Source: Rhodomicrobiaceae bacterium
GTDB taxonomy: Bacteria; Pseudomonadota; Alphaproteobacteria; Rhizobiales; Rhodomicrobiaceae
Length of the DNA: 64,000 nucleotides
Direction: 5' to 3'
Assembly: GCA_965247345.1 (NCBI GenBank)
Contig: CBDFGZ010000028.1
Span: forward strand, 5,435 to 69,434
Below, piece by piece: positions 7,275 to 48,544 of this stretch (positions are counted from its first letter, which is position 1; every line of letters begins with the position of its first letter). The notes under the pieces are model-generated. The model was given only the letters and a program-made list of their open reading frames with translations. It searched no databases and was not told the origin of the DNA. A program made the position numbers and the translations under genes.

Positions 7275-7350
7275 AGCTTGCGTGTGATGGAACGTTAGTT
7301 GATTATTGCTGTTTGTTTCATTGCGCGATAATCAGACGAAAGAGGATCAT

Positions 7351-10128: not shown

Positions 10129-10168
10129 ACCGGCATCGCAGGTCACCGCGCTGCCGGTCTCATTTTGC
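10129..10168. terminator. Hairpin between convergent genes (weak terminator candidate)
   Basis: ACCGGCA (10129-10135) / TGCCGGT (10152-10158) with a 16-nt loop, followed by CTCATTTTG. Abuts the stop codon of the minus-strand oxidoreductase. Confidence 0.3.
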
Positions 10169-11287
10169 GTTCGCGAGCAGCGCACTGTTTGTAATGCGGG
10201 TTACGGTCGCAGTCGCTTTCAGGATACTCGGGATCAGATACGCGGCGGCCATCGCTAAACGCTGACCCGACGGGTTGACGAGAATTTTGGAAATCGTTGT
10301 CGCTCGACCGACTTGGCGGCCTACATCCTTTTCCAGTGCCCGGTGATATTCGGTAGCAATACCGCCATTTAGGTAGGCGCGGGATGCAAGCTGAGCGCTG
10401 TGAAGCGCGATAGACATGCCGTCGCCGGAAAACGACGGAATGACCGCAGCCTGGTCGCCCAATCGCCAAAGACCATCCGGACCGGGCGCGCGATTGACGT
10501 AGCCATAGGGCAAACCGGTGATGGCCAGAGGTCTACCCTGTTGTACAATCGCCATACGCAGTCGCGCCCTCAGGTGAGGACACGCAACAATCATGTCTGC
10601 GATCAGCCGGTCGTAGGTTTTATATCGACCTGCGAACACGCTTTGCCTCACAAGAAGACATAAGTTGGCAAAACCCCCTTCAATCAATTGCAGTCCCGCA
10701 TACCCGCCAGGAAATAGAATCAGTTCCACGTGATCGCGAAGCGCGTCGGTTTGCTCGTCTGCAAGCCGCCAGTAGGATTTCAGACCGATGAGATCGTTTT
10801 GCGTGCCCGGTGGGCGCTTCCACCCTCTCAGATCATGCTTACCGGTCGCCAGAAAAGCGTCCGGAGCATCATATTCCGAACCGTCGCCTGTGACGACAGT
10901 CCAGCCGCCATCCGACTGCGTGAGTTCTTTTACCCGGGTATCTCGATGGACCTCCACCCCGGCCTTGACTGCGAGATCAAGCAGACTGTTATCAAGACAA
11001 CGGCGGGAGAGACTTCGCGCCGTGAACGGCAACGGGTATGTCACGGGCGCTCCGTCATTGACGATACGCACGTTTGAGATTGAAACGCTGTTCAAGTTCC
11101 CGAACGACACGCCAAGGCGGTCGAGATAGCTTATGCCCTCACGACTGATGAATTCGCCGCAGACCTTATCGTGGGGACCGGTTTCGCGCTCAAGCAGGAC
11201 AACGCGCCGACCGGCGCGCGCCAACTGAATGCCCACCGCGGTGCCAGCAACGCCGCCTCCCACGACGATTGCGTCATATCTGATCAT
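10160..11287 (-). CDS. FAD-dependent oxidoreductase/monooxygenase (SrsC-like, geranylgeranyl-reductase-type fold)
   Basis: YDAIVVGGGVAGTAVGIQLARAGRRVVLLE dinucleotide-binding motif followed by KVCGEFIS. Third gene of the type III PKS operon, 3 nt after the methyltransferase stop. Confidence 0.8.
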   Translation of the reverse strand: MIRYDAIVVGGGVAGTAVGIQLARAGRRVVLLERETGPHDKVCGEFISREGISYLDRLGVSFGNLNSVSISNVRIVNDGAPVTYPLPFTARSLSRRCLDNSLLDLAVKAGVEVHRDTRVKELTQSDGGWTVVTGDGSEYDAPDAFLATGKHDLRGWKRPPGTQNDLIGLKSYWRLADEQTDALRDHVELILFPGGYAGLQLIEGGFANLCLLVRQSVFAGRYKTYDRLIADMIVACPHLRARLRMAIVQQGRPLAITGLPYGYVNRAPGPDGLWRLGDQAAVIPSFSGDGMSIALHSAQLASRAYLNGGIATEYHRALEKDVGRQVGRATTISKILVNPSGQRLAMAAAYLIPSILKATATVTRITNSALLANAK

Positions 11288-11290
11288 GGC

Positions 11291-12010
11291 TCAAACTTTG
11301 ATGCGTGAAACGCTAAGGCGAAACGGCATCCATTTTTCGATTGCGACCGCTTCTCTCGCTAAACCGGCCTCACGCAAAAGTCGTTCCCAATCATAATATG
11401 TAAACGCGCTCGCAACCGAGACGGGGCCGTCGTGTCGCATGAACCGATGGCGGCGCGTTGCCCAAAATCCAATCTGCAAGGCGCGGTATGAAAGCCAATG
11501 CCGTTCAAGATCATTGATGATCCACCCGATACGGCTGTGCTCTTCCATCCAGTTGATAAAGCGCACTACATCCCCGTCGCGCAGATGATGCGTAAACAAC
11601 GAACTCATCACGATGTCGGTGTCGGCGGGGGGCCGGTATTCGAACACATTGGCCGTGACCCAACGTAATGGTCGCTTTGCCGCCGTTGCTTCCTCTGCGG
11701 CCCGCGCCGACCATGGGTTCATATCCACGCCGACGATATCGACCGCAATGCCGCGCCTTGAAGCCCACGCGTCGATCTTGCGTGACATATCGCCGTAACC
11801 GCTTCCGACATCGACGATTCTCACCCGTGAGCCGCTGGAAAGGCGACCCCGGCCGGCAAGCTTGTCGAAGAACGCCATCGTGGGACGGTATGCGAGCGAC
11901 AGCCGGTTCGCCTGCTCCAACTGCATCAGACAGCCACGGAACTCCGGGTAATCGACGGCCTCGATGTCCATGAGTTCCGGTGTCGTATCCCGGCGGGAAA
12001 AATCCGGCAT
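11291..12010 (-). CDS. SAM-dependent methyltransferase (SrsB-like)
   Basis: VDVGSGYGD motif I. The ATG at 12010-12008 lies 2 nt after the PKS stop (TAG-CA-ATG). The longer track ORF to 12256 would overlap the PKS by 244 nt and is rejected. Confidence 0.8.
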   Translation of the reverse strand: MPDFSRRDTTPELMDIEAVDYPEFRGCLMQLEQANRLSLAYRPTMAFFDKLAGRGRLSSGSRVRIVDVGSGYGDMSRKIDAWASRRGIAVDIVGVDMNPWSARAAEEATAAKRPLRWVTANVFEYRPPADTDIVMSSLFTHHLRDGDVVRFINWMEEHSRIGWIINDLERHWLSYRALQIGFWATRRHRFMRHDGPVSVASAFTYYDWERLLREAGLAREAVAIEKWMPFRLSVSRIKV

Positions 12011-12012
12011 TG

Positions 12013-13083
12013 CTATGCCGCCGTGTGGAACAGCATCGTCTCCGCGGTCAACCCCGGCCCAAAGGACATGGCACATCCCTTTTCGCCGAAGGTCCGGCTG
12101 TCGAGGAGGGATTTCAAAACGAACAGGATCGTCGCGGACGACATATTTCCGCAATTCCGCAGGACGTCGCGCGAAGCCTGAAGCGCGTTGGGGCTTAAAT
12201 TGAATGCGGTCTCGACCGCGTCGAGGATGGCACGCCCACCCGGATGCACGGCCCAAAGATCCATATCCTTTGGCGCAAGCCCACCGAGAATATCAAGCGA
12301 TTTGGCGTTCAAGGTCTCGGCCACCGATGCGGGAATACGGTTGGATAAAATCATGTCAAAGCCCTGATCGCGAATGAACCAGCCCATCTGATCGGAAGCC
12401 TCGGGCAGAACCGTCGCATAAAAGCTGTCAAGCCCCAGGCCGCGCTCGTCACCTGTGATCAATGCGGCCGCGCACCCATCCGCGAACAGGAGAAACGGCA
12501 TCATCTGCGTGAGATCGCTGGTTTCCTGAAAATGGAGCGAACACAATTCCACGCTGACCAGAAGCACCCGCGCCTTCGGCTCGGAGCGGACGATGTGCCG
12601 TGCGCACTTCAGTCCGTTGATGGCGGCATAACAGCCCATGAACCCGATAACCGTCCGCTCCACAGTAAGTTGCAAGCCGCAGCGATGGACGATCTCAAGA
12701 TCAACGCCTGGGGCGGCAAATCCTGTACAGGATGTTACGATAAGGTGCGTCACCCTCTTCGCATTATGTTCAAGGTTAAGATTGCCGACCGCCTGGGACG
12801 CAAGCGTTGGCGCATCCCGCTCATATTCCCGCATACGAACGCCCGTCGTCGGGAAATTGCCCGGTGCGTAAAAAATCTCCCCGTTGGAGGATGCGCTGGA
12901 ACAATCGGGCGCCGGGGTCAGAAAAGACCATCGGCGTTCGATTTGTCCCCGCTCCACAAGCTTGTCAAAAATCAACTGTTGGCGGTTGTCGGTCAGGAGC
13001 CGCCGCTCGAACTTGACGAAGGCATCGTGAACCTGATTCGGTGGGACAGCGGTGGCGATCTGATTGATATACGCGTTGGTCAA
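12013..13083 (-). CDS. Type III polyketide synthase (chalcone/stilbene synthase superfamily, alkylresorcinol/alkylpyrone-type)
   Basis: Cys-His-Asn triad contexts TSCTGFAAPG, WAVHPGGRAIL and GNMSSATILF. 356 aa. Confidence 0.92.
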   Translation of the reverse strand: MTNAYINQIATAVPPNQVHDAFVKFERRLLTDNRQQLIFDKLVERGQIERRWSFLTPAPDCSSASSNGEIFYAPGNFPTTGVRMREYERDAPTLASQAVGNLNLEHNAKRVTHLIVTSCTGFAAPGVDLEIVHRCGLQLTVERTVIGFMGCYAAINGLKCARHIVRSEPKARVLLVSVELCSLHFQETSDLTQMMPFLLFADGCAAALITGDERGLGLDSFYATVLPEASDQMGWFIRDQGFDMILSNRIPASVAETLNAKSLDILGGLAPKDMDLWAVHPGGRAILDAVETAFNLSPNALQASRDVLRNCGNMSSATILFVLKSLLDSRTFGEKGCAMSFGPGLTAETMLFHTAA

Positions 13084-13295: not shown

Positions 13296-14513
13296 ATGTC
13301 ACAAGGAACAGATCAAACCCGGCGGCGTTTGCAAACTGAAAACGCGCACCTTATTGCGGAAGTCATGCATCCTATCGTCATTACAATTCCAGCCCGAAAC
13401 GAAGAGGACCGCATTGGGGCCTGTTTGACTTCTATTGAGGAGGAGGCCAGGAATTACGACGGCGATGTGAAGGTTATCGTTTTTGCGAACAACTGCGCGG
13501 ATCAAACCGCGAGCCGTGCGGCGCACATGGCATCAAGGGCGGCAATCGACGTCCACGTGCACATTCAGCAATTTCCCCCTCACAGATCGAATGCAGGATG
13601 CGCGAGGGCAGCCGCATTTGCATTAGCCGCGTCGATGGCAAACAGCGCCAAGACCATTATTGTCTCGACCGATGCCGACAGCCGTCCGCAGCCGGGCTGG
13701 CTCGCGAAAATCAGCGGAGCCGTGAGCAAAGGTGCCGACGCGGTTGCGGGGGTCGTGGAGTTCGAGCCCGGGGAAACCGCGAATTTGCGGGTGCTGCCGG
13801 TACGCAGGCGCGAGGCTGAATATGCCGGATTACAGGCGCAACTTGTCGCGTGTCTTGATCCATTGGACCACGATCCATTTCCCAATCACATCTGGGCGTG
13901 GGGCGCGAATCTGGCTGTAACCCTCGATGCTTATCGTCGAGTGGGTGGCGTCCCACAGGTTGAGCTTGCGGAGGATCGCGCTTTCGTTACGCGGCTGGAG
14001 GCGTTCGACTGCAAGGTGCGCCACGATCCTGACGTTCGGGTCTGGACTTCCACCCGCACCGATGGTCGTGCGCCTGGGGGCCTCGCCGATCTTATATCTA
14101 TATACAGTCACGACCCGACCTACCCATGTGACGCTGCACTGATGCCCGTCAACAATCTTGTTCGTCATGCGCGGCTTAAGCGCAAATTTCGCCGAGCGTT
14201 TCACGACCGGACAAGATTTGTTTCACATCTCGCCGCAACCATGAATGTTTCCATTGATATAGCCGAAAAAGCGCTTGACCAGCCGTTTTTCGGTCAGGGA
14301 TGGGCGCTGCTGAGAGAGGAGTCGGCTTTGCTTCATGAGCAACGTTTATTTCCCATCGCTTTGGAAGCGGAACTGCACAAAATACGCCGCGCGCTGGCTT
14401 CGACGCTGAAGCATGAGACCGGTACAAACGTGAACGATAGCGCCAGTTTGTGGGCCGGGATTTCCGAGACTCGACCACGTTCGGCAACCATCAGCAGCAC
14501 GAAAGTTGAATAG
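13296..14513 (+). CDS. Glycosyltransferase family 2 with ~150-aa C-terminal extension
   Basis: VITIPARNEE, FANNCADQT and STDADS (DxD). The start could be the ATG at 13296 or at 13365. The track ORF from 13083 overlaps the divergent promoter region. Confidence 0.8.
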   Translation: MSQGTDQTRRRLQTENAHLIAEVMHPIVITIPARNEEDRIGACLTSIEEEARNYDGDVKVIVFANNCADQTASRAAHMASRAAIDVHVHIQQFPPHRSNAGCARAAAFALAASMANSAKTIIVSTDADSRPQPGWLAKISGAVSKGADAVAGVVEFEPGETANLRVLPVRRREAEYAGLQAQLVACLDPLDHDPFPNHIWAWGANLAVTLDAYRRVGGVPQVELAEDRAFVTRLEAFDCKVRHDPDVRVWTSTRTDGRAPGGLADLISIYSHDPTYPCDAALMPVNNLVRHARLKRKFRRAFHDRTRFVSHLAATMNVSIDIAEKALDQPFFGQGWALLREESALLHEQRLFPIALEAELHKIRRALASTLKHETGTNVNDSASLWAGISETRPRSATISSTKVE

Positions 14514-15672
14514 TTTGGACACATACTTTGCAAAAATTGAGGAATATCAGGGCGACAATGTTTTGCCGGGGGTATACTTAACTCAAATTGCAGATAATGC
14601 ATCGGTCCATGATCGTGAAGGAAGCTTTCCCGCAGGCGATATCGTGATGCTTTCAAAGCTCGGTATATTGAGGCGCACTGCGGTACTGGCAAACAGCTTT
14701 GCCACGGCCGAGATTCCGGAGACTGCGACAGTTGAACTGAAAAACCTGTTGCGAAGTCTCGGGTACGCGAACCTTAGCGTGGCGAGATTGTTTGAGGGGC
14801 ATTTCAACGCCCTGTTTCTCATCGCAAAATTCGGCTCGGAGGCCCAGTTTGCCCGAGCATTGCGCGATGCGGAACAAGGTCATCTTTTTGCGATCTGGAA
14901 TGCTGATGCGGCAAATGCCGTGCGGATCAGCAAAGCGCAACGTGAAATGGCGTTAACCGGAGCGAAGCGCTTTTGCTCCGGCGCGGGGTTCGTTAAACGT
15001 GCGCTTATCACCGCCGCCACTGATGAGGGAGGGCCATTGCTTGTTCTGGCGGAACTGGACACGCACACTAAAGTCGATCTCTCCACCTGGAAACCTCTCG
15101 GCATGCGGGCGTCGATGAGCGGCACCGTTGATTTCACCGGTGCGCCCAGCGCTCGCCTCACGATCATTGGACAACCCGGCGACTACACGCGCGAGCCATT
15201 CTTCTCGGGTGGTGCGTGGAGATTTCTTTCTGCGCAGTTGGGTGCGATAAACGCGCTTGCGGATTGCGTCCGAGAGGATTTGCATGCCACCGGGCGACAT
15301 CATGATCCCCTTCAGAACGCGCGGTTTGCCAAAACTCTGATCGCGGTGGAGACGGCGGAACTCTGGGTCGCGTCTGCCTCGAAGAAAGCGGAGGACAACC
15401 GACTGCCATCCGATCTCCGGATTGCCTATGTGGGACTGGCTCGCCATGCTGTGGAGCAAGCGAGTTACCTGGTGATGGAAACGTTGCAGCGATCTTTGGG
15501 GCTGAATGCACTCCTTCAGCCGCATCGCGCGGAGCGTATCATGCGCGATCTTTCCACCTACCTCAGGCAACCGGCACCGGACCGCGTTTTAGCGAATGCC
15601 GCGAGTTATGCGTTTGAGGCAGGCATCGCCGGTGTCCATTTATGGTCATCCCCAAATGCAGAACGACAGTGA
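14506..15672 (+). CDS. Acyl-CoA dehydrogenase-fold flavoprotein
   Basis: 388 aa with ACAD-like architecture (LFEGHFNA..., FCSGAG, MRASMSGTVDF, FFSGGAWRF). The TTG start overlaps the GT2 stop by 8 nt, so the exact start is uncertain. Confidence 0.7.
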   Translation: MNSLDTYFAKIEEYQGDNVLPGVYLTQIADNASVHDREGSFPAGDIVMLSKLGILRRTAVLANSFATAEIPETATVELKNLLRSLGYANLSVARLFEGHFNALFLIAKFGSEAQFARALRDAEQGHLFAIWNADAANAVRISKAQREMALTGAKRFCSGAGFVKRALITAATDEGGPLLVLAELDTHTKVDLSTWKPLGMRASMSGTVDFTGAPSARLTIIGQPGDYTREPFFSGGAWRFLSAQLGAINALADCVREDLHATGRHHDPLQNARFAKTLIAVETAELWVASASKKAEDNRLPSDLRIAYVGLARHAVEQASYLVMETLQRSLGLNALLQPHRAERIMRDLSTYLRQPAPDRVLANAASYAFEAGIAGVHLWSSPNAERQ

Positions 15673-16402
15673 TCTGAGGCGGGTGCAGTCGTTTCCCTAC
15701 TGCACGATTGAGGAGATTTGCGGTTCGTCCGGCCCGATCCTCGTGATGGCCCCCCACCCGGATGATGAAACGCTCGGCTGCGGTGGTCTGATGGCAGAAG
15801 CGCGGCAGCGAAAGCGCGAGGTGTACATTGCGGTTTTGACGGACGGTACTCAGTCCCATCCAAACTCCAAGGCCTATCCATCAGAACGCCTCGGTGAACT
15901 GAGACGGAGCGAATCCCGCGCGGCGGCCGTGGAACTGGGGTTAGACCCCGAGCGGATTGTATTTTTGGGGCTACAGGACGGTGGTGTTCCCCACGCGGGT
16001 TCAATTTTCAACAACGCGGTGGCGCGCATCGCCGATCTTTGTCTTGCGCGTAATGTTTCGGCGTTGTTCTGCACCTGGCGGCATGATCCCCACCCTGACC
16101 ACAAAGCCGCGTGGTCGATGGCTTTGGAAGTTCAGCAGCGCATTCCCAGCCTCAAGCTTTGGGCTTATCCCATCTGGGGATGGACACTCGATCATACGGA
16201 TGCCGCTGGCGCTGGAGCTACGAACGGGGTTCGTCTTAACATTTCGGGGCATTTACCTGCGAAGCGGCGCGCAATCTCGGGGCACGCCAGCCAGATCTCA
16301 GGTCTTATTCACGACGACTCGCAAGGCTTCAGGCTATCCGCAGAGGTGATTTCATTTTTCGAGCAGTCATTTGAGGTGTTTCTGAATGATGACAGAGACT
16401 AA
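15656..16402 (+). CDS. PIG-L / LmbE family de-N-acetylase
   Basis: VMAPHPDDETLGCGG zinc-site motif plus HPDH. The ATG at 15656 overlaps the upstream stop by 17 nt. Confidence 0.85.
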   Translation: MQNDSDLRRVQSFPYCTIEEICGSSGPILVMAPHPDDETLGCGGLMAEARQRKREVYIAVLTDGTQSHPNSKAYPSERLGELRRSESRAAAVELGLDPERIVFLGLQDGGVPHAGSIFNNAVARIADLCLARNVSALFCTWRHDPHPDHKAAWSMALEVQQRIPSLKLWAYPIWGWTLDHTDAAGAGATNGVRLNISGHLPAKRRAISGHASQISGLIHDDSQGFRLSAEVISFFEQSFEVFLNDDRD

Positions 16403-16976
16403 CCGCACCTTGTCTAAAGAGTATTTCGACAAGCTATATGATTCGTCCCGCGATCCGTGGCATTTTGAGACGAGCGACTACGAGCGCGAAAAATACCGGG
16501 AAACGCTGCAAGCTTTGCCCGATCCCCGGTATCGGTCGGCTTTTGAAGTCGGTTGCTCCATTGGTGTTCTCACGGCGTTGCTGGCCGCACGATGTGACCG
16601 CTTGCTGTCCGTGGACATTTCCACAAAGGCGCTCGAAACAGCAAAAGCCCGGTGCGCAAATCTTCCGCAGGTCTCGTTCGCGCAGATGGAAGTTCCAAAA
16701 GACTGGCCGACCGCACAGTTCGACCTCATCCTGCTGTCCGAGATGGTTTATTATCTTGACGATCTCGACGTCAACCGATTGGCAGAACGCGTCCGCCGAA
16801 GTCTTATTCCAGGCGGGGACTGCGTGCTTGTGCACTGGACGAAGCCCACGGAATATCCCCAAACCGGTGATGGTGCTGCAACGCTGTTCATCAAGGCCAT
16901 GGGAAATACAATAAAGGTGCTTAACCAACGGCGATTCGAAAGCTATCGCATCGATGTGCTGAAGCGGGTCCGGTGA
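16386..16976 (+). CDS. SAM-dependent methyltransferase, NodS-like
   Basis: DPWHFETSDYEREKY N-terminal box typical of NodS-family proteins and EVGCSIGVLT motif I. The start overlaps the deacetylase stop by 17 nt. Confidence 0.8.
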   Translation: MMTETNRTLSKEYFDKLYDSSRDPWHFETSDYEREKYRETLQALPDPRYRSAFEVGCSIGVLTALLAARCDRLLSVDISTKALETAKARCANLPQVSFAQMEVPKDWPTAQFDLILLSEMVYYLDDLDVNRLAERVRRSLIPGGDCVLVHWTKPTEYPQTGDGAATLFIKAMGNTIKVLNQRRFESYRIDVLKRVR

Positions 16977-17018
16977 TTGCTGCCCGCGCAAGACATGCAG
17001 CAGCAGTCGGCCCGCCGT

Positions 17019-17384
17019 TCAAAGCACATACCGGCAAAACATGCCGATTGCGTCGCGATGAATTTCCACCGATGCAAGCTTTGCAGATGTCATCGGACTC
17101 GTGCGGGCGGCAATCCAGGCTGCCAGAGTTTCCATACTGTACCCCATGCCGGGGATTTCGTTCATCAGTCTGCCGTCCGCGCTGGCTTTGATATCCGCTA
17201 TAATCTGCTGCACCTCACCCAGATCAACCGCGTACCCCGATACATGATCGGGAGCACCTTGGAAAATCAGCGCAACGCGGTAACTGTGTCCGTGAACGCG
17301 GCTGTTGGTATGGCCTGATGGCTCATGAACGGCGCTGTGCGCAAGATCGAGATGGAACGTAAAGCCAACTGTGACGCATGCCAT
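17019..17384 (-). CDS. 6-pyruvoyl-tetrahydropterin synthase / QueD family protein
   Basis: 121 aa with an HGHSY zinc motif and a T-fold-sized protein. The start shares 1 nt with the folB-like stop (TAATG). Confidence 0.75.
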   Translation of the reverse strand: MACVTVGFTFHLDLAHSAVHEPSGHTNSRVHGHSYRVALIFQGAPDHVSGYAVDLGEVQQIIADIKASADGRLMNEIPGMGYSMETLAAWIAARTSPMTSAKLASVEIHRDAIGMFCRYVL

Positions 17385-17767
17385 TACGATGATCCGTCGA
17401 ACGAACCTCGGTTTGCTGAAAGGGCGCAGCCCACCGACTTCGCATCCGGATAAACATCGAGTTTGCGGGTTTTGACGGACGCGGCCTGAATATGTTCATT
17501 TTTGAAGATTAGCGCGAGGATCGCAAGGCATAGCGCTTCCTGAGTGTTGAACCGTCGTTTTTCCAGAAGGTCCGAAATACCGGTGCGAATGAAATCGTAG
17601 TCCACGGTCTGGGTAATCGAGTCCTCGTTCGCTTCGAGGGAAAGGTTCACATCCACTTCGACATCGACGGACAGCCGCTGTTTGCGACCCACTTCGAAAT
17701 CGTGGATGCCAATGTCGGCCGCGACCTCGTAATCTTGCAGAAACAGTTTGAACGACGTGATTTGCAT
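17384..17767 (-). CDS. folB: Dihydroneopterin aldolase family protein (FolB/FolX-like)
   Basis: 127 aa T-fold protein: ADIGIHDFEVGRKQRLSVDVEV...VDYDFI. The start shares 1 nt with the SDR stop (TGATG). Confidence 0.7.
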   Translation of the reverse strand: MQITSFKLFLQDYEVAADIGIHDFEVGRKQRLSVDVEVDVNLSLEANEDSITQTVDYDFIRTGISDLLEKRRFNTQEALCLAILALIFKNEHIQAASVKTRKLDVYPDAKSVGCALSANRGSFDGSS

Positions 17768-18522
17768 CAGCTTTGACCGGGTTTGACGAACGCCACGTCG
17801 CGACCATGCGGGGCAAGATATTCGCCGCCGTCAATGGTTATAACCTGGCTTCGAAAAGATGGTGTGTTGAGAATAAAAAGGACAGCGCTGGCGACCTGTT
17901 CGGGCGTGCACCCTTGCTGTAGCGGATTGAGCACATGGGCTGCAACGAACTCGGCCTGCGTTTGATTGCCGCTGATCATCGTGATACCCGGCGCAATTCC
18001 GCATACGCGAATATGTGACGGTAGCGACTGCGCCAGCATCTGCGTCATGGCATGAAGCGCAACTTTGCTCACAGTGTAGGAGAAATAATCCGGGTTGATG
18101 GCGAAAACGCGATTGTCCAGCACATTGATCACGCAACCCGGCTCACTCCGTGCTTTCGCGTAAAGCTGGGCTAAATGCAACGGCGCGACCGCATTTACTG
18201 CCATGGCGCGCGCAACGCTCTCGTCGTCGGCGGTTTCCCATGTGTCGTAATCGAAACGAGACGCGCAGTTCACGATGGCGTCAAGCGAACCAGCGACCGC
18301 GATGGCGTCGCACATCAACTGGACACGGCTGCTTTTGCTTGCCAGGTCTGCTTGCAAGACCGACGCTCGCAGACCCTGCTGACGAAGCCCGGCCTGCAAA
18401 GCGAGCGCATCGTTCGCACTCGAATTGTAGTGGATGATGACATGCCAGCCATCTTGAGCGAGCGCCGTCGAGATCGCGGCCCCAACCCGCTTTGCGCCAC
18501 CGGTTACGAGAACAGCGCGCAT
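17767..18522 (-). CDS. Short-chain dehydrogenase/reductase, pteridine reductase-like
   Basis: MRAVLVTGGAKRVGAAIS (TGxxxRxG variant seen in PTR1/FolM-type enzymes) and YSYTVSK (YxxxK). The longer track ORF to 18672 overlaps nadK and is rejected. Confidence 0.75.
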   Translation of the reverse strand: MRAVLVTGGAKRVGAAISTALAQDGWHVIIHYNSSANDALALQAGLRQQGLRASVLQADLASKSSRVQLMCDAIAVAGSLDAIVNCASRFDYDTWETADDESVARAMAVNAVAPLHLAQLYAKARSEPGCVINVLDNRVFAINPDYFSYTVSKVALHAMTQMLAQSLPSHIRVCGIAPGITMISGNQTQAEFVAAHVLNPLQQGCTPEQVASAVLFILNTPSFRSQVITIDGGEYLAPHGRDVAFVKPGQS

Positions 18523-18532
18523 CGAAGGTCGG

Positions 18533-19342
18533 TCAGAAGCGAAATTGTTCGGCAAGGATACGCTCTTCCAGCGCATGTCCCGGATCGAACACGAGCTTGA
18601 GGCCGAGTGTCCGTTCCTCCCGGATGGACACCGAGAGGATGTTCCTGATCTCGATATGATCGGCCACGGCACTGACGGGACGCTTTGCGGATTCGAGGAC
18701 CGTGATTTTCACGTTGGCCTTGTTCGCAAGCAGCGCGCCGCGCCATCGCCTCGGTCGAAACGGGCTTATGGGCGTCAAAGCAAGAAGCCGTGCTTTCAGC
18801 GGAAGGATCGGGCCGCCCACCGAGAGATTGTAAGCTGTACTGCCCGCAGGCGTCGATACCAGCACGCCATCGCAAACGAGATCGGCAAGACGCTCCTGCC
18901 CATCCACTGTAATCGCCAGTCTCGCGGCTTGATATGTCAGCCGAAACAGGGAGACCTCGTTGATTGCCAAGGCCTCTTTCATCTCCCCGCCCTCCGCCTC
19001 CACTCGCATCTTGAGTGGATGGATGACGTTGACTTTCGCCTGGGCGATGCGTTCGGGCAAACCATCTTCAAGATAATCGTTCATCAGAAAGCCCACCGAC
19101 CCGCGATGCATACCATAAATCGGGATTTCATCCTTCATGAACCGGTGCAAGGTCTGAAGCATAAGACCGTCGCCGCCAAGGGCTACGATCACGGAAGCGT
19201 CTTGTGGGTTAACGTTGCCATAACGCTTGGTCAGCCGCTTGTAAGCCGCCTGGGCCTCAATCGCGGGGCTTGCCACAAAGCTCAGCCGCTGACTCTGTAA
19301 CGCCAGGTTGGCATGCGGTTGACCACTCTCGCTTTGCACCAT
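18533..19342 (-). CDS. nadK: NAD kinase
   Basis: [24 protein letters not shown] and [16 protein letters not shown]. Confidence 0.9.
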
Positions 19343-26878: not shown

Positions 26879-27823
26879 TTAATAGGACTTTGCCAGATCC
26901 ATTCCAGCATAAAGGTTGGCGACCTGCTCCGCATAACCGTTGAACGGTAAGGTTGGCCGCTTTTTCGCAAACAAACCGCTGCCTTCGCCGATGCGACGTT
27001 CGCTTGCCTGGCTCCACCGTGGATGGTCAACGGCTGGGTTCACGTTAGAATAAAAGCCATACTCGCGTGGATTTTGAATATTCCAGGATGTTTTCGGCTG
27101 CGTGTCCGTGAGAGTGATGCGTGTAACCGACTTTATACTTTTGAAGCCGTATTTCCACGGAACCACAAGCCGGACAGGCGCGCCATTTTGATTAGGCAGC
27201 GTTTCACCGTATAGACCGGTGGCCATGAGGGTCAACGGATGGAGCGCTTCGTCGAGCCGTAGCCCTTCGACATAGGGCCAGTCCAGGGCTTGCAGCAATC
27301 CGCGCTGGCCACGCATTTCGGATGGCCGCACAACGGTTTCAAACGCGACAAACTTTGCCGATCCCAACGGTTCGACGCGATTAAGCAACGCCGACAACGA
27401 GAACCCCACCCAGGGGATGACCATCGACCAGCCCTCCACGCACCGCATTCGGTAGACACGTTCTTCCAGCGTCACGCCTTTCAACACATCTTCAAGGGCT
27501 AGGGTCGCTGGCTTCGACACCAACCCATCGATCTTGATCGACCACGGATCGGGCTTGAACGTGGAGGCATAATCGGCGGGATCTGCTTTGTCCGTACCGA
27601 ACTCGTAATAGTTGTTGTAGGTGGTGATGTCTTTCTTCGAGGTTTGTGGTTCGTCCAGCGTAATGACACCCTTTGTGAAAATAAGCGGGGCGGCTTCAGA
27701 GACAGCAGAAAATCCCACAGTCGCGGCGGTGGCCGCGGCTCCGAAAACAAAATCGCGACGCCGAAGGTATGCGGACAGAGGGGTGATCTCCGAGGATGGT
27801 ATATTCTTATTCTTGTGCTTCAT
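26879..27823 (-). CDS. msrP: Protein-methionine-sulfoxide reductase catalytic subunit (molybdopterin, YedY family)
   Basis: Tat signal [29 protein letters not shown] and [13 protein letters not shown]. Confidence 0.9.
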
Positions 27824-39499: not shown

Positions 39500-40696
39500 T
39501 CAGCGTCCGAAAGCCGCGTACATCGCCTGCTCCAGGTCGGCGATGAGATCGCCAGCATGCTCGATTCCCACCGACAGCCGCACAAGACCGGGCGTGATGC
39601 CCAGTTCCGCCTTTGCTTCATCGGTGAGCCGCTGATGCGTCGTGGTTGAGGGATGCGCAATCAGACTTTTCGCGTCGCCAAGATTATTCGAGATGAGGAT
39701 CAGGCGCAGCGCATTCATGAAACGGAATGTGTCAGCTTTGTCACCACGCAGCCAGAACGCAACGAGCGGACCGCCGCCTGTCATCTGCCGCCTCGCGATT
39801 TCATGCTGAGGATGGTCAGCGCGGCCGGGATAACTTACGCGCTCGACGGCTGAATGCGATGCAAGGAAGTCAGCGATCCTGGCCGCGTTCGCCACATGCC
39901 GCTCCACGCGCAGCGGCAGCGTCTCCATACCTTTCAGCAGCACCCAAGCGTTGAAGGGGCTGAGCGAGGGACCGGTCTGGCGTAAAAAATTCTTGAGATG
40001 GTCGTCAATGAACTGATGCCTGGCGAGTACAACGCCGCCAAGGCATCGCCCCTGCCCGTCGATGTGCTTCGTCGCCGAATAGATTACCACATCGGCCCCC
40101 AGTTGCAGCGGCTTTTGCAGCATGGGTGTCGCGAACACGTTATCCACCATGAACAGGGCGCGAGCATCGCGCGCCATGGCCGCCACGGCTTCGATGTCCA
40201 CAAGTTCAAGCGTCGGGTTGGCGGGCGTTTCGCAGAACAAAACCCGCGTGTTATCGCGGATCGCGCCGCGCCACGCAGCAAGATCGCGGCCATCCACCAG
40301 CGTGGACGTGACGCCGAAGCGCGGCAGCAACTCCTCGATCACGAACCGGCACGCGCCGAACAGCGCCCGCGCCGCCACCACGTGATCGCCCGCCTTCAGA
40401 CAGCACATGAGCGCCGACGTGACCGCCGCCATGCCCGTGGCGGTGGATCGCGCGGCTTCGGCACCTTCCATCAACGCCATGCGCGTCTCGAACATGGTGT
40501 TGGTGGGGCTTGCATAACGGCTGTAGACGTAGCCATCCGCATCGCCCTTGAAGCGAGCCTCGGCCTCTTCCGCGTTGTCATAGACATAGCCGGAATTGAG
40601 GAACAGCGCTTCGGATGTTTCACCGAACGGTGACCGCATGGTGCCGCCGTGGACGAGCAGGGTATCAGGGTGAAGTGCGGTTGGCGTGTCTGACAT
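39500..40696 (-). CDS. metZ: O-succinylhomoserine (or O-acetylhomoserine) sulfhydrylase, Cys/Met PLP family
   Basis: LLVHGG...YSRYASPTN...YSATKHIDGQG (PLP Lys)...RLSVGIE. I prefer the ATG at 40696 (MSDTPT...). Confidence 0.88.
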   Translation of the reverse strand: MSDTPTALHPDTLLVHGGTMRSPFGETSEALFLNSGYVYDNAEEAEARFKGDADGYVYSRYASPTNTMFETRMALMEGAEAARSTATGMAAVTSALMCCLKAGDHVVAARALFGACRFVIEELLPRFGVTSTLVDGRDLAAWRGAIRDNTRVLFCETPANPTLELVDIEAVAAMARDARALFMVDNVFATPMLQKPLQLGADVVIYSATKHIDGQGRCLGGVVLARHQFIDDHLKNFLRQTGPSLSPFNAWVLLKGMETLPLRVERHVANAARIADFLASHSAVERVSYPGRADHPQHEIARRQMTGGGPLVAFWLRGDKADTFRFMNALRLILISNNLGDAKSLIAHPSTTTHQRLTDEAKAELGITPGLVRLSVGIEHAGDLIADLEQAMYAAFGR

Positions 40697-40854
40697 GACG
40701 ACCTTTTTTACGCAAAGCCGCAGCACGTGCCAATTCACATCGCGCGGCCTTTTAGCGATTTATTTAACGTGGCTGCAAGCCGACCGGCAAATGACCACAG
40801 GATACGAGTATGAGCGGGTTCGCGATACGCCGTCAAGATCGCCGGTGTGAGCGA

Positions 40855-41427
40855 TTATACAAAAAATTCAGCTAATGCCACACTTATGCCGGGAGGTTCC
40901 AAGGCAATCGTTCCGTCCCGCAAAATTCGGGTGCGGATTTCGTCGCCCGAACCGCGTGTATGATGGATGACGAAGCGCTTCTCCGGATCGATGATCAGGT
41001 AGTGCATAACGCTCGGCACCGTGAAGTAGCCTTCAAGCTTTTCGCTCATATCACGTCCGGCCGTGCCTTCGGACAACACCTCCACAACAATGACCGGGTT
41101 CGGGATTTCCAGCGAACGCGGATCGGCTTTCTCGCCGCAATAAACGAGCACGTCTGGCTCAAATGCCTTTTTCGCTTCAATCCGAACTGTGGCACCGTCC
41201 AAAAGTGTAGCGCAGGCCAAACTCGCCTTCGCGATACTCTGGCGAAAAGCGATAAAGATGTTGCCCTTGATCTCGGTGTGAAGAACCCGCTCAGCCTGCA
41301 TCGACACGCCGTCATGGGACTGGCGAACCACCACGCCGTCGAACAATTCATACCGTCCCTCAGTCTGCTGTGCAGACCAGATCAGGAACTCGTCGACGTT
41401 CATTTCGGGGAGCGCTGCTGTTTTCAT
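40855..41427 (-). CDS. Uma2 (DUF820) family endonuclease
   Basis: EFLIWSAQQTEGRYELFDG...EPDVLVY...VVEVLS...KLEGYFTVPSVMHYLIIDP matches the PD-(D/E)xK-like Uma2 pattern. Confidence 0.75.
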   Translation of the reverse strand: MKTAALPEMNVDEFLIWSAQQTEGRYELFDGVVVRQSHDGVSMQAERVLHTEIKGNIFIAFRQSIAKASLACATLLDGATVRIEAKKAFEPDVLVYCGEKADPRSLEIPNPVIVVEVLSEGTAGRDMSEKLEGYFTVPSVMHYLIIDPEKRFVIHHTRGSGDEIRTRILRDGTIALEPPGISVALAEFFV

Positions 41428-41493
41428 TGCATCAATATAAGCTCTACCAGACCCGCAGCAAAGCGTAATCCTCTTGGATGTGAGCAGGGAAGT

Positions 41494-42198
41494 TTACTGT
41501 TGCGGCGGTGCGATGTCGCTCAGGAATGCCGTCAGGTTATCGGTATAAAAATCGATATAACCGGGCAGTTCAGCGACATTATCGAACGCCTGCTGCGATG
41601 GATGATCGCGATAGCTCGAATGCACCAGCACGGTTGCCAGACCGATCGCATGCGCTGCCTCCAGGTTATGCGGTAAGTCCTCGAACATGGCTCCCTTGCA
41701 ATCGAGGCCGCCACAGAAGTCCACAAACTTCGCAAATGCTTCCGGCTTCGGCTTCGGGATATAATCTCCCGCCACGATATCGAAAATCCCGTCGAAGTGA
41801 TGCAGCACGCCAAGCTTGCCTGCAACCCGTTCCGCGTGAGGCACCGACCCGTTGGTGAAGATGAACTTTCTTCCGGGTAGCTGGCCGATTGCGCCTCCCA
41901 GGTCTGGCGCGGGCAGGATCGGTTCGAGATCGATGTCGTGCACGTAATCCAGGAAATCGCCGGGCGTGATGCCATGCTCGATCATCAGGCCGGAAAGCGT
42001 TGTGCCGTGATCGTAATAGAGCTGCTTCTGAATGCGCCGAGCCTCCGCATGATCCAGGCCAAGCAAACGCTGAATGTACTCCGACATGCGCTTGTCCACC
42101 TGCGCGAACAGGTTGCAGTCAGCCGGATAGAGCGTGTTGTCGAGGTCGAACACCCAGAGACGGATGTCGCGGAATGCTTCAGATATTTCGATACCCAA
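41494..42198 (-). CDS. Pyrimidine 5-prime-nucleotidase (HAD superfamily IA)
   Basis: WVFDLDNTLYP (DxDxT), FTNGSVPHA and MFEDLPHNL. Confidence 0.85.
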   Translation of the reverse strand: MGIEISEAFRDIRLWVFDLDNTLYPADCNLFAQVDKRMSEYIQRLLGLDHAEARRIQKQLYYDHGTTLSGLMIEHGITPGDFLDYVHDIDLEPILPAPDLGGAIGQLPGRKFIFTNGSVPHAERVAGKLGVLHHFDGIFDIVAGDYIPKPKPEAFAKFVDFCGGLDCKGAMFEDLPHNLEAAHAIGLATVLVHSSYRDHPSQQAFDNVAELPGYIDFYTDNLTAFLSDIAPPQQ

Positions 42199-42430
42199 AA
42201 AATGACCTCAACTTGCCAGACGTTTTCTATACTCCACTTTCGCCTTAAAATAAATTGGTGCTCAAGAAAATATTCTTTAGCATCGCATCGTCGGCAATTG
42301 GTTTCATGACACGCATTGCGGCATCGGAGGCTGCATCAATTGCAACGCTTCCTGTCCAATAAGATTTGTATATCGTTTCATCGCCCCTAACACTGAACAG
42401 TCGCAGCGCAGACCGACCCATCGTCATGAA

Positions 42431-42476
42431 TCAACAAATAGCCTCGCGGACGTGTCCGCGAGGCTATTTATTTTTC
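42431..42476. terminator. Bidirectional rho-independent terminator after the fasciclin gene
   Basis: Palindrome ATAGCCTCGCGGAC-GT-GTCCGCGAGGCTAT (42438-42467), flanked by TTTATTTTT on the plus strand and TTTGTTG on the minus strand. Confidence 0.75.
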
Positions 42477-42500
42477 CGGCTGGAGCGGGAAATAAAACGA

Positions 42501-43055
42501 CTACTTAGGCAGAAGAACTTTGTCGATCACGTGGATCACGCCGTTCGACTGAACGACATCGGCAATCGTAACTGTTGCCTTACCGCCGTTTTCATCTGTC
42601 AGGATCACTTTACCGCCTTCGATGGAGCCAATGAGCTTGCCGCCGGAAACGGTGGGGATCGGATGCTTGCCGCCGTCATCGTTAATCATTTTCACGATGG
42701 CATCGCTGAGGACTTTCTTGCCCACAACATGATAAGTCAGGATTTTAGCCAGCTTCGCTTTGTTTTCAGGCTTCAGCAACGTTGCCACGGTGCCTGCTGG
42801 AAGTGCATCGAAAGCCGCGTTGGTTGGCGCGAAAACGGTGAACGGGCCTGTGCCAGACAGAGTGTCGACAAGACCAGCCGCTTTGACAGCAGCCACAAGC
42901 GTGGTATGATCCTTGGAGTTAACGGCGTTCTGGATGATGTTCTTGGTGTCGTACATTGCAGCGCCACCAACCATTGGGTTTTCGGCAGCGAATGCAGAAA
43001 CTGGTGCCAGCGCAGCAACGATGGCGAGGATCGACAAGGAACGACTCAACTTCAT
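42501..43055 (-). CDS. Fasciclin (FAS1) domain secreted protein
   Basis: Signal peptide MKLSRSLSILAIVAALAPVSAFA. TVFAPTNAAF and HVIDKVLLP are the FAS1 H1/H2 boxes. Confidence 0.88.
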   Translation of the reverse strand: MKLSRSLSILAIVAALAPVSAFAAENPMVGGAAMYDTKNIIQNAVNSKDHTTLVAAVKAAGLVDTLSGTGPFTVFAPTNAAFDALPAGTVATLLKPENKAKLAKILTYHVVGKKVLSDAIVKMINDDGGKHPIPTVSGGKLIGSIEGGKVILTDENGGKATVTIADVVQSNGVIHVIDKVLLPK

Positions 43056-43506
43056 TAGATTTCCCTTTGATGGTTACGATTAATTTCGGAGCGGTCATTT
43101 CTGCCACATAAAACTATACGGAGATGTCCACCCCGAGTTTCAGGGATACCCAGGGATTTCCCACGACATTGCCAAATCGTAAGAATATTGTACATAAATA
43201 CACGAGGTGGAAGCCGGAAAGCGAGGCACGGGCGTGGCGGTGAAAGCCGTGAGTGATTTCACGCGAGCCGTGCAAAATGGCCAATGGATGGATAGGTGTC
43301 GGTGTTTGAATGAACTTTTGGAGGGCCATCGTTGAAGGCTAGCCCCCGTGGCCTCGCGTTTGACTGGCACCAGAAGGCACACCGGATAACGCACGGCATA
43401 GCGCATGCGTCACAAGAAAATGACATCCATCCTGCCAATCAAAATGCTTGTATCGAATGCGCCTTATGGTATCAATAACCGCCCGCATGTCATTAGGCGG
43501 TCCTGT

Positions 43507-43581
43507 TCCCCGGTAGCTCAGCGGTAGAGCAAGCGGCTGTTAACCGCTAGGTCCGCGGTTCGAATCCGTGCCGGGGAGCCA
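43507..43581 (+). tRNA. tRNA-Asn (anticodon GUU)
   Basis: TCCCCGG-TA-GCTC-AGCGGTA-GAGC-A-AGCGG-CTGTTAA-CCGCT-AGGTC-CGCGG-TTCGAAT-CCGTG-CCGGGGA-G-CCA. 75 nt. Confidence 0.92.
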
Positions 43582-43641
43582 TATCAAAATTGTATGATCC
43601 AGCGACATGCTCGCGATCAATCTGTTCCCTTTGAATATCGC

Positions 43642-44400
43642 TTATTGCGGTGCACCCGTCGGGCCAAATCGTTCCGTTTTAATCGTAAGTGGATCATGCC
43701 CGAGATCTACAAGAAGACGCGATACGTCTTCCACGAGCGGGTTCGACCCGCAGATGAAGATGCGCGGATGATCGGCGGGTGCGAAACCGACGCGGGCCAG
43801 CAAATCCCTGTCTATCCGCCGTCGCCCGCCGCGCCAGCCTTCCGGCTGAGAGCGTGAGAGCGTGTGCACCACCAGGACATTTGGCATCGCCGCCGTGATC
43901 TCCTCCAGTTCAGCGCGGTAGATAATCTCTTCAAGTCCACGCGATGAGTAGAGAAGCGTCACGAGGCCCGAAAAGGCCTGCTCGCGCACATGACGCAAGA
44001 TTGACATCAGGGGCGCGATGCCCGAACCGCCAGCGATAAGATAAAGCGGGCCGCGTTCGGCAACCGTCCATACGAAATAGCGTCCTATGGGTCCGCGAAT
44101 TTCGAATTGATCGCCAGCCCGGGCCTCGCCCGCGAGATAGTCTGAGACCTCGCCGCCGTCAACGCGTTCAATGGCGAGTTCCAGATGAGGCGCTTCAGGT
44201 GCCGATGCGATGGAATAGCTGCGCTGCGCCTGATAACCGTCGTCCGCCGTAAGACGAACGTCGAGATGCTGCCCCGCGACGTGGCCGGGCCAACCGGGCG
44301 CGTCCAGCGTCAGTCGTTTCACGCGGGGCGTTTCCATCACCGTCGAAATTACGGTGGCGGTCAGCCAGGTTGATGACTTCGACGGTTCAGCTTGGGTCAT
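43642..44400 (-). CDS. Ferredoxin-NADP reductase-like FAD/NAD(P)-binding oxidoreductase
   Basis: RSYSIAS (RxYS FAD motif), LIAGGSGIAPL (NAD(P) motif) and C-terminal ICGSNPLV. Confidence 0.8.
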   Translation of the reverse strand: MTQAEPSKSSTWLTATVISTVMETPRVKRLTLDAPGWPGHVAGQHLDVRLTADDGYQAQRSYSIASAPEAPHLELAIERVDGGEVSDYLAGEARAGDQFEIRGPIGRYFVWTVAERGPLYLIAGGSGIAPLMSILRHVREQAFSGLVTLLYSSRGLEEIIYRAELEEITAAMPNVLVVHTLSRSQPEGWRGGRRRIDRDLLARVGFAPADHPRIFICGSNPLVEDVSRLLVDLGHDPLTIKTERFGPTGAPQ

Positions 44401-44483
44401 GGTCTTTTTTCTCTGGTAAAAATGCGAGCCGCTCCTCAGCTACGCTACATCGAAAGCAATCGCAGAATGCTTTTCTAGGCTCA

Positions 44484-45026
44484 ATGACCAACGAGCAGCA
44501 CGTGATCATCTTAAATGTCAAAACAACCGCGTCACGACATCGGTATATCACGACATTTACTGATCGGTACGGCGTATCAAAGTACACATCCCATGCCCAA
44601 GATTACTCCGACCTTGTGGTGATCGACGAGCTGAACTGGGAATTTGCAAACGCGGCCTATAACCCGCGTTTCACCTTTGGCACCGATCATCACGAGCGCG
44701 CGATATTTTATGATGCACGTATCCGTGACAAAACCAGCGAAACCGCATTTATAGTTATGTGTCACTGGTTTTCGGCTGCAGCAAAGAAGGTAATCGGGTT
44801 GGCTGATGCCAAAGACATGTTCAGCAAAGGGCGGCATAGAGGATTCGGTTTCGATCTGATGGAGGCCGGGAATATCGTCGCGACACTTAAGTTAAGCCTG
44901 TTTCAGCAAAAACAAACGCTCACCGTCTTTGATGAGAAAAGAACGCCCGTGGCCGTTCTCCTCTCAAGCGTGAACTTGGCTCGTCGACGGATCGGCAAAT
45001 TTACACACTGGGGAGGAGACGCCTGA
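44484..45026 (+). CDS. Hypothetical protein (no family recognised), compositionally atypical
   Basis: 180-aa ORF from the ATG at 44484, visibly AT-richer than its neighbours. Its TGA stop abuts the stop of the convergent molybdoenzyme gene with zero spacer (TGATCA). Confidence 0.45.
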   Translation: MTNEQHVIILNVKTTASRHRYITTFTDRYGVSKYTSHAQDYSDLVVIDELNWEFANAAYNPRFTFGTDHHERAIFYDARIRDKTSETAFIVMCHWFSAAAKKVIGLADAKDMFSKGRHRGFGFDLMEAGNIVATLKLSLFQQKQTLTVFDEKRTPVAVLLSSVNLARRRIGKFTHWGGDA

Positions 45027-45647: not shown

Positions 45648-45701
45648 GACCCGCTCCCTACGTTCAAGATAATCGACTGCCGCATCATGAGCGAAAGCGC
45701 C

Positions 45702-47027: not shown

Positions 47028-47114
47028 GAGCTAGGGTTAGCGCTTTTTGCCGATTGGCCGCAACTGCATTTGTGACGACCGATAGGGATATTCGAGTCCG
47101 GTCAGCACGTGCGT

Positions 47115-48351: not shown

Positions 48352-48544
48352 TCGGTTCTCTCGATATCGGGCGATCTTACCCGGCTTCAGTTTCCAGACA
48401 CGCCCGCCAAGGCAAGCCGCGAATTTCATCGCAATACGTCCAAGACTAAAATATGTCGAAACCTAGAGTAAATTGCGTTTAGCGCAAACTATTCCGGGCT
48501 GGCCGATCAACATCCTTCGACCAACTGAGGATGCCGGCGTGAAC

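Follow-up and report, generated by a model that had tools for sequence, protein, structure and literature searches.

A widespread four-enzyme gene cassette for a putative amino-sugar conjugate, preceded by an EcfG-type promoter motif in a Rhodomicrobiaceae bacterium

What is made by four tightly packed genes that encode a glycosyltransferase, a flavoenzyme, a deacetylase and a methyltransferase, and under which regime are they expressed? The question is raised by a stretch of 64,000 nt from a Rhodomicrobiaceae bacterium (contig CBDFGZ010000028.1), called the window below, to whose positions all coordinates refer. Its plus strand encodes, in this order, a glycosyltransferase (GT) of the GT2 family, a protein with the acyl-CoA dehydrogenase (ACAD) fold, a PIG-L/LmbE-family de-N-acetylase, and a methyltransferase (MT) of the NodS family. 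We lean towards the view that these genes form one operon (13365-16976), an autonomous and conserved module of four enzymes which builds and tailors an amino-sugar conjugate and is driven by EcfG, the sigma factor of the general stress regulon. The module is very widespread, yet uncharacterised.

Homologues of the ACAD-fold protein were sought in one genome per GTDB species (185,579 species genomes), which gave at least 581 genomic matches, a mark of a large family. Eighty-seven loci were compared, 80 from this species-genome scan and seven from plasmid records and the contig of the nearest relative, and synteny was counted by tblastn of the window proteins against the loci. All four genes were adjacent in 40 of the 87. 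Conservation of the gene neighbourhood, which the first-pass annotation of this DNA had put forward as a check on the four-gene set, was clearly confirmed by this count. Carriers, drawn from at least four phyla, include many Hyphomicrobiales, Bradyrhizobium, Komagataeibacter, Deinococcus, Nostoc and Puniceicoccaceae (Verrucomicrobia); the cassette is not peculiar to the source genome.

In the co-directional form, the order is GT-ACAD-PIG-L-MT, as found in the window, in the nearest relative (locus L086, 56-67% identity, same gene order), in some Methylobacteriaceae and in a Puniceicoccaceae genome. In the split form, the ACAD-PIG-L-MT unit has a convergent GT gene downstream; this arrangement was seen in Xanthobacteraceae, Ancylobacter, Azorhizobium, Chelatococcus, Salinarimonas, Komagataeibacter, Bradyrhizobium, Deinococcus and Nostoc. 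All-against-all clustering of the flanking open reading frames (ORFs) revealed no fifth conserved gene, be it a transporter, a flippase or a regulator. The four genes stand alone in Nostoc, and the cassette does so in Deinococcus as well. Methylobacterium genomes hold many partial paralogue loci, with the ACAD-fold gene alone or accompanied by the MT gene.

Gene fusions provided independent evidence. In a Pfam scan of long HMMER matches, the PIG-L and NodS-type MT domains were found joined in proteins of about 450 aa (P0378, P0385 and P0403). A triple fusion, P0468 (795 aa), holds ACAD, PIG-L and NodS-type MT parts in the same order as the genes; it is 34%, 36% and 41% identical to the window ACAD, PIG-L and MT proteins, respectively, and retains the motifs FEGHxNA, VWN, FCxG and RDLxxYLxQxxPD. 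Because of these Rosetta-stone fusions, the ACAD-fold, PIG-L and MT enzymes are placed in one pathway. The reading of the cassette as a single, functionally coupled operon, already made in the first-pass annotation, is backed both by the fusions and by the synteny, which spans 40 loci from at least four phyla. Other members of the PIG-L subfamily, of 38-41% identity, are fused to LPG_synthase_TM, a flippase-like membrane domain (P0438, P0465 and P0471), and in P0411 PIG-L is fused to a DXD glycosyltransferase (Gly_transf_sug), which suggests lipid-linked substrates in some lineages.

Some loci show further particularities. In L024 (5078-6555) and about 11-13 other Methylobacterium loci, the ACAD-fold and NodS-type MT genes occur without PIG-L and GT and are followed by cytochrome b561 and a molybdopterin oxidoreductase, a pair resembling MsrQ/MsrP. 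These neighbours hint at sulfoxide or redox chemistry for the ACAD-MT pair. In Deinococcus radiodurans (L087, 3546-9950, on a 412-kb replicon), the ACAD homologue reaches 779 aa, with an N-terminal extension of about 400 aa, and a DEAD/DEAH helicase gene is inserted between the PIG-L and methyltransferase genes. The extension had no Pfam match, and its identification as the cassette GT was ruled out (BLASTP E=1).

Within the window, the ORF listing offered starts at 13083, 13296 and 13365 for the first gene, all ending at 14513, then 14506-15672, starts at 15596 and 15656 for the third gene (end 16402), and 16386-16976. With the start codons chosen in the first-pass annotation, its overlaps of 8, 17 and 17 nt between successive genes were reproduced. 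The GT start had been placed at 13296; ATG 13365 is more likely, according to the alignment of homologues and to a promoter motif lying between the two positions, which moves the start by 69 nt. GT homologues begin at the residue matching ATG 13365 (window MHPIVITIPARNEE, nearest relative MRPIVIAIPARNEE), and their lengths (365-400 aa) and N-terminal alignment agree with it. Since the homologues begin there, the GT gene most likely extends over 13365-14513 (382 aa). The ACAD-fold gene (14506-15672, 388 aa) may begin at TTG 14506, with an 8-nt overlap with the GT gene, or at TTG 14515, leaving a 1-nt gap. For the PIG-L gene (15656-16402, 248 aa), ATG 15656 is supported by alignments of homologues that extend to query residues 7-10, and in the MT gene (16386-16976, 196 aa), ATG 16386 is preceded by GAGG 9 nt upstream. 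The public calls of two of the window's own proteins differ from these limits: the GT (P0121) is given as 449 aa, versus the 382 aa backed by homology, and the ACAD-fold protein (P0001) as 341 aa, starting from Met48, so that conserved N-terminal residues are cut off.

The four genes are tightly packed into one transcription unit. No sigma-70-like promoter was found at any gene junction or in the intergenic segment 13083-13365, and the single one detected sits within the MT gene; terminator-like sites in the region were not above chance, and its base composition was unremarkable. In annotated relatives (four RefSeq loci), the ACAD and PIG-L genes overlap by 1-4 nt, and the PIG-L and MT genes either overlap by 4 nt or are separated by 2 nt.

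The domain assignments of the first-pass annotation (GT2, ACAD fold, PIG-L, NodS family) were upheld, three by Pfam scores above cut-off and that of the ACAD-fold protein by its homologues and by the fold of an AlphaFold2 (AF2) model. The PIG-L protein scored 92.1 bits with PF02585 (cut-off 28.2, 5e-26), and its motifs PHPDD (APHPDDE) and HPDH have counterparts in the aligned sequences of TT1542 and diacetylchitobiose deacetylase. Enzymes of the LmbE/PIG-L family have a His2-Asp zinc site (PMC4101496). Judged by the Pfam score and the predicted zinc-binding residues, the window protein is a member of this family, and a metal-dependent de-N-acetylase by prediction. It did not reach the NCBIfam equivalogs of BshB and MshB (BshB2 51 versus 195, BshB1 49 versus 183, MshB 26 versus 224). 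An exhaustive HMMER search returned 8,688 relatives at E ≤ 1e-3 and 217 at E ≤ 1e-30.

The MT, a class I SAM-dependent methyltransferase, scored 79.8 bits with Pfam NodS (PF05401; 24 required, 3e-22). Against the NCBIfam NodS equivalog it obtained 82.1 bits versus 300, and hence is not NodS itself. Its matches in the PDB were an uncharacterised methyltransferase (4isc, 1.4e-30), NodS (3ofj, 5e-17) and phosphoethanolamine N-methyltransferases (3e-11). NodS and the phosphoethanolamine enzymes methylate primary amines, and the window protein is likely an N-methyltransferase as well, on this sequence relationship. No NodA, NodB or NodC-type genes were present among the ORFs scanned at 1685-27823 and 39503-48429.

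The first enzyme is a GT2-family glycosyltransferase of GT-A fold, as indicated by Pfam (PF00535, Glycos_transf_2, 37.9 bits versus a cut-off of 23.3; PF13641 also above cut-off), by its DxD motif and by its fold. TDAD (the DxD motif, T102-D103-A104-D105) and LAEDRA were invariant in an alignment of 50 sequences. Its AF2 model is of good quality by the predicted local distance difference test (pLDDT 90.6), and the fold search returned generic GT-A enzymes only, with template modelling (TM) scores of about 0.4 (AvpGT, WrtF, TarS, K4CP). A profile search of the PDB gave E-values no better than 7e-4, and no specific relative emerged by fold; among curated NCBIfam models, HpnB (the top match, 44 bits versus 379), MftF and GpgS were all far under their cut-offs. 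The C-terminus carries an additional conserved domain (about residues 260-350), basic, helical and rich in arginine, whose helices are a hint of an anionic or membrane-bound acceptor.

For the ACAD-fold protein of the window, no Pfam family was matched at E ≤ 0.01. Homologues do carry PF02771/PF00441 matches, and because many of them have these ACAD domains, the fold relationship is taken as real; the AF2 model (pLDDT 89.6) adopts the ACAD fold. In the protein collection 735 relatives were scored, the closest of which, 57% identical, comes from a Hyphomicrobiales metagenome-assembled genome, and the flavoprotein bears the label ‘AidB-like’ in source annotations. A PDB sequence search matched TdsC (1.6e-7), glutaryl-CoA dehydrogenase (8.5e-5), MsuC (3.4e-4) and DnmZ/KijD3 (0.016). 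The best curated NCBIfam matches were SfnB (51 bits versus 431) and DszC (20 versus 850), so that membership in either equivalog was not reached. In the fold search, KijD3, DnmZ, ORF36, TdsC/DszC and MsuC came on top, with E-values from 2e-13 to 1e-11 and TM scores of 0.70-0.77.

In true ACADs of the YxxEG type, the catalytic glutamate would face a segment which in the present family is the invariant Y352-L-R-Q-P-x-P-D359 (YLRQPAPD), and which has no glutamate; the equivalence was placed by ungapped extension of the glutaryl-CoA dehydrogenase alignment, an inference that concerns the YxxEG site and does not cover the alternative base position, as in isovaleryl-CoA and long-chain acyl-CoA dehydrogenases (IVD/LCAD). 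Further motifs are an invariant EGHxNA and a near-invariant W-N, and the KxFxSG and WN segments of the flavoenzyme align to FCSG and GN of TdsC. The flavoenzyme is thus probably of an oxygenase type (group D-like) rather than a true acyl-CoA dehydrogenase, on sequence and model comparisons that are not decisive. The first-pass annotation had proposed two options for this protein. An oxygenase resembling the nitrososynthases is now favoured, by the loss of the motif and by the fold ranks, and a role of an ACAD on an acyl chain is less so.

How is the module controlled? A pattern match to a sigma-EcfG-type promoter, GGAAC-N16-CGTT (GGAACAGATCAAACCCGGCGGCGTT), lies on the plus strand at 13305-13329 (−35 element at 13305-13309, −10 element at 13326-13329). 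It ends 35 nt before ATG 13365, between the earlier and the corrected GT starts. In the nearest relative, GGAAC-N16-GGTT ends 37 nt before the GT start. Two patterns were then scored across the loci, a strict one (GGAAC-N16/17-CGTT) and a relaxed one (GGAAC-N16-18-NTT). The strict motif was present within 330 nt upstream of GT in 15 of the 33 loci with an opposite-strand GT, for a background of 0.7% per region (naive binomial P 3e-24) and a frequency of 5/422 (1.2%) in control ORF-upstream regions of the same loci. Eight further opposite-strand loci have GGAAC...[G/T]GTT variants upstream of GT. Before the ACAD-PIG-L-MT unit, the relaxed motif was found in half of the full split loci (15/30); the background is 3%, controls show 3.8%, and of the partial paralogue loci 1 of 47 has it. 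No k-mer shared by the regions upstream of ACAD was detected, the relaxed EcfG pattern being what gave a signal there, and the spacers between −35 and −10 differ among loci. Outside the Alphaproteobacteria, no EcfG-type motif was seen in the loci of Deinococcus and Nostoc; the Deinococcus upstream regions were also read, by eye only, for the radiation/desiccation-response palindrome, and nothing obvious was seen.

The published EcfG consensus is GGAAC-N17-20-GTT; it is enriched in the 100 bp next to the start, and EcfG-dependent genes also show the variants CATT, TGTT and GGTT (PMC6599016). The window motif and its distance to the start codon agree with this description. A second EcfG-type promoter of the window, of canonical form, GGAAC-N17-GTT at 7289-7313 on the plus strand, is followed by a ribosome-binding site, AGAGGA, and by ATG 7351; the gene behind it (to 7833) belongs to the Pyrid_ox_like / general stress protein 26 family, and genes of the latter type are listed as an EcfG target class (PMC6599016). 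For this gene, the start given in the ORF listing (TTG 7306) is probably wrong. No EcfG, NepR or PhyR gene was found among the window ORFs scanned. Taken on its sequence features, the window operon probably belongs to the general stress (EcfG) regulon. The main texts of the searched papers on general stress response regulons do not mention a PIG-L, ACAD or NodS cassette, their supplementary gene tables not being covered by this statement.

The first-pass annotation knew of no characterised pathway with this exact composition, and none came to light: the NCBIfam equivalogs were all far under their cut-offs, PADLOC gave nothing useful, and no account of the cassette came up in the literature searched, a review of the LmbE family included. 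A function in anti-phage defence was discarded, as PADLOC returned only a generic methyltransferase-domain match to mad2. Several known systems are nevertheless related in their chemistry. In Nod-factor tailoring by NodC, NodB and NodS, as proposed here, N-acetylglucosamine (GlcNAc) is installed by a GT2 enzyme, deacetylation yields a free amine, and this amine is the methylation target of a NodS-family enzyme. However, the cassette deacetylase has the LmbE/PIG-L fold, whereas NodB is of carbohydrate esterase family 4 (CE4), the NodA acyltransferase is missing, the GT is a soluble, non-processive-looking GT-A enzyme and not a membrane-bound one like NodC, and the cassette is also present in non-rhizobial phyla. 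Bacillithiol and mycothiol synthesis (BshA/MshA, BshB/MshB, BshC/MshC) likewise pairs a glycosyltransferase with a later-acting GlcNAc deacetylase of the LmbE family, whose substrate is a small glycoside, but the cassette has a GT2 enzyme instead of a GT4, no cysteine ligase, and a methyltransferase and a flavoenzyme in addition. In hopanoid synthesis, the GT2 enzyme HpnI attaches GlcNAc to a lipid, from which the deacetylase HpnK makes the glucosaminyl form, and many of the host taxa overlap with those of the cassette; HpnK is of another deacetylase family (YdjC-like), unlike the PIG-L protein, and the cassette is without the radical-SAM protein HpnJ.

For the flavoenzyme, the ACAD-fold monooxygenases (KijD3, DnmZ, ORF36, DszC/TdsC, SfnB, MsuC) are the top fold and sequence matches, and FCSG and W/G-N are common with TdsC, but identity is only 15-20%, true ACADs come almost as close in structure, the cassette family has motifs of its own (EGHxNA, YLRQPxPD), and no dTDP-sugar or flavin reductase genes are nearby. 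The likeness to the PhyR-NepR-sigma EcfG regulon resides in the promoter motif, in its distance to the start and in its conservation before orthologous units, although the cassette is also found in phyla without EcfG. What would be new is an amino-sugar pathway with a GT and an LmbE-type deacetylase that includes an unprecedented pair of methyltransferase and ACAD-fold oxygenase, in a stress-regulon context.

The following scheme can be proposed. Upon stress, phosphorylated PhyR would free EcfG from NepR, and EcfG would transcribe the operon from 13305-13329. The soluble GT-A enzyme would then move an N-acetylhexosamine from a nucleotide sugar onto an acceptor, and the PIG-L enzyme would strip the N-acetyl group, a step suggested by the fact that all characterised family members hydrolyse a GlcNAc amide or a related amide. 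The freed amine would be methylated by the NodS-family enzyme, because NodS and the phosphoethanolamine N-methyltransferases, its nearest relatives of known function, act on primary amines. The flavoenzyme may use O2 to oxidise the product, as in N- or S-oxygenation, instead of dehydrogenating an acyl-CoA, given the lost catalytic-Glu motif and the relationships to nitrososynthases and DszC; these last two steps could take place in either order. The end product would probably be a cytoplasmic or membrane-associated stress metabolite. It is possible, if somewhat doubtful, that this product is an undescribed, stress-induced, N-methylated and N- or S-oxygenated amino sugar (a protectant, a redox buffer or an envelope lipid head group), part of the alphaproteobacterial general stress response and horizontally shared with Deinococcus, Nostoc, Methylobacterium and Roseomonas-like Acetobacteraceae. 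Bacteria of these groups are often desiccation- or radiation-tolerant.

A number of observations weigh against this scheme. The strict motif occurs three times in the window, for 2.8 occurrences expected by chance, which alone is not significant; the window motif carries conviction only through its placement and conservation. GGAAC-type −35 elements are common to other extracytoplasmic function (ECF) sigma factors. Among the ten co-directional full loci, nine of which are alphaproteobacterial, the relaxed motif was upstream of GT in only two, one being the nearest relative; because it is mostly missing from these loci, EcfG control appears to be lineage-dependent. As for the enzymes, the GT resembles generic GT-A folds only. 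True ACADs trail the oxygenases only slightly in the fold search (about 2e-11, with equal TM scores), the oxygenase matches being barely better, which makes the type of oxidation tentative, and the operon lacks a gene for a flavin reductase partner. Finally, since the Methylobacterium paralogues have the ACAD-fold gene, alone or with MT, without PIG-L or GT, the flavoenzyme is not strictly dependent on the amino-sugar steps.

Could the cassette instead serve its neighbours? Divergent from it lies a minus-strand operon (10160-13083) made of a type III polyketide synthase (PKS) gene (12013-13083; best PDB matches stilbene synthase and PKS18), a PRK06202-type methyltransferase (about 11291-12016) and a geranylgeranyl-reductase-family FAD enzyme (10160-11287), a composition that recalls SrsABC and the mycobacterial polyketide-quinone operons. 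The two units share an intergenic region of 281 bp, in which a weak GGAAC-N17-CTT (13275-13251, minus strand) is oriented toward the PKS operon, whose start lies about 190 nt downstream of it; the motif may have arisen by chance or act as a further stress promoter. An alkylresorcinol or polyketide quinone made by this operon might be glycosylated by the cassette GT and the sugar then tailored. Besides the common intergenic region and the motif facing the PKS operon, the weak NCBIfam match of the GT with MftF would fit such a decoration; in mycofactocin, a GT2 enzyme and a methyltransferase (MftF/MftM) decorate a small redox cofactor. However, the co-occurrence with type III PKS operons that the first-pass annotation had envisaged did not materialise: no PKS, SrsB-like or SrsC-like gene lies within 8-10 kb in any of the 87 loci (tblastn of the PKS, the SrsB-like MT and the SrsC-like FAD enzyme against 85 loci, and inspection of called genes for L086). 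In L086 the upstream neighbours of the cassette are YceI and a histidine kinase, and the cassette stands by itself in Nostoc and Deinococcus. We regard a role in PKS product decoration as improbable; the adjacency is probably incidental, and the PKS not part of the pathway.

Remodelling of a glycolipid head group, from GlcNAc-lipid to glucosamine (GlcN)-lipid and on to an N-methylated or oxidised form that alters the envelope under stress, would have parallels in the de-acetylation of GlcNAc-phosphatidylinositol (GlcNAc-PI) and in the conversion of bacteriohopanetetrol (BHT)-GlcNAc to BHT-GlcN. This option is kept alive by the basic C-terminal tail of the GT and by the fusions to LPG_synthase_TM; the fusion to a DXD glycosyltransferase and the rank of HpnB as top, if weak, NCBIfam match of the GT go in the same direction, and many host taxa, among them Methylobacterium, Bradyrhizobium, Acetobacteraceae and Nostoc, produce hopanoids. 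Yet no membrane-like hydrophobic stretch was noticed in the four window proteins (no formal test was made), no flippase or transporter is conserved nearby, HpnB stays at 44 bits versus 379, and the carriers Deinococcus, Sulfitobacter and Paracoccus are not known to make hopanoids; on the whole we find it unlikely. Detoxification or salvage of an exogenous or damaged compound, as by Mca-type amidases or AidB-like proteins, would agree with stress regulation, with the ‘AidB-like’ annotations and with the presence of conjugate amidases such as Mca in the LmbE family. A fixed set of four enzymes, with fusions, would rather be expected of a dedicated pathway with a single scaffold as its target, and no transporter or regulator is conserved, so that little probability is attached to this explanation. 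The most improbable of the alternatives is a sulfur-containing compound of low molecular weight, of the bacillithiol or mycothiol type, with the MT as N- or S-methyltransferase and the flavoenzyme oxidising sulfur: a cysteine ligase of BshC or MshC type is missing from the conserved surroundings of the cassette, the GT is not a GT4, the equivalogs are far under cut-off, and alphaproteobacteria use glutathione, even though BshB1/BshB2 are the best NCBIfam matches of the PIG-L protein, the organosulfur monooxygenases SfnB, DszC/TdsC and MsuC the best sequence matches of the flavoenzyme, and an MsrQ/MsrP-like pair follows ACAD and MT in the Methylobacterium paralogue loci.

On its other side, the cassette is convergent with a minus-strand operon encoding a 6-pyruvoyl-tetrahydropterin synthase (17019-17384), the dihydroneopterin aldolase FolB (17384-17767) and a short-chain dehydrogenase (17767-18672), a set suggestive of pterin metabolism; a NAD kinase-like gene (18533-19342) comes after it, and a plus-strand ORF at 16977-17318 is probably spurious. 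Elsewhere on the minus strand, 26879-27823, 45027-45647, 43642-44400 and 45702-47027 hold two molybdopterin-oxidoreductase-domain genes, a ferredoxin-reductase-type FAD/NAD oxidoreductase and a gene of the cyclopropane-fatty-acid-synthase family. The window DNA looks like a chromosomal core (carA, the electron transfer flavoprotein (ETF), leuC, metXW, folB), and a plasmid search for near-identical DNA gave only a 98-bp match, at chance level.

The reading that we favour, an EcfG-driven module for an amino-sugar conjugate, bears on the stress biology of alphaproteobacteria. Their general-stress regulons contain many genes of unknown function, and we know of few dedicated stress metabolites in these bacteria beyond trehalose and similar solutes. 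In many genera, EcfG-type promoter motifs stand before both transcription units of the module. It offers a testable lead to a new amino-sugar compound related to stress, and also to a reaction not yet known for the ACAD-fold flavoenzyme family.

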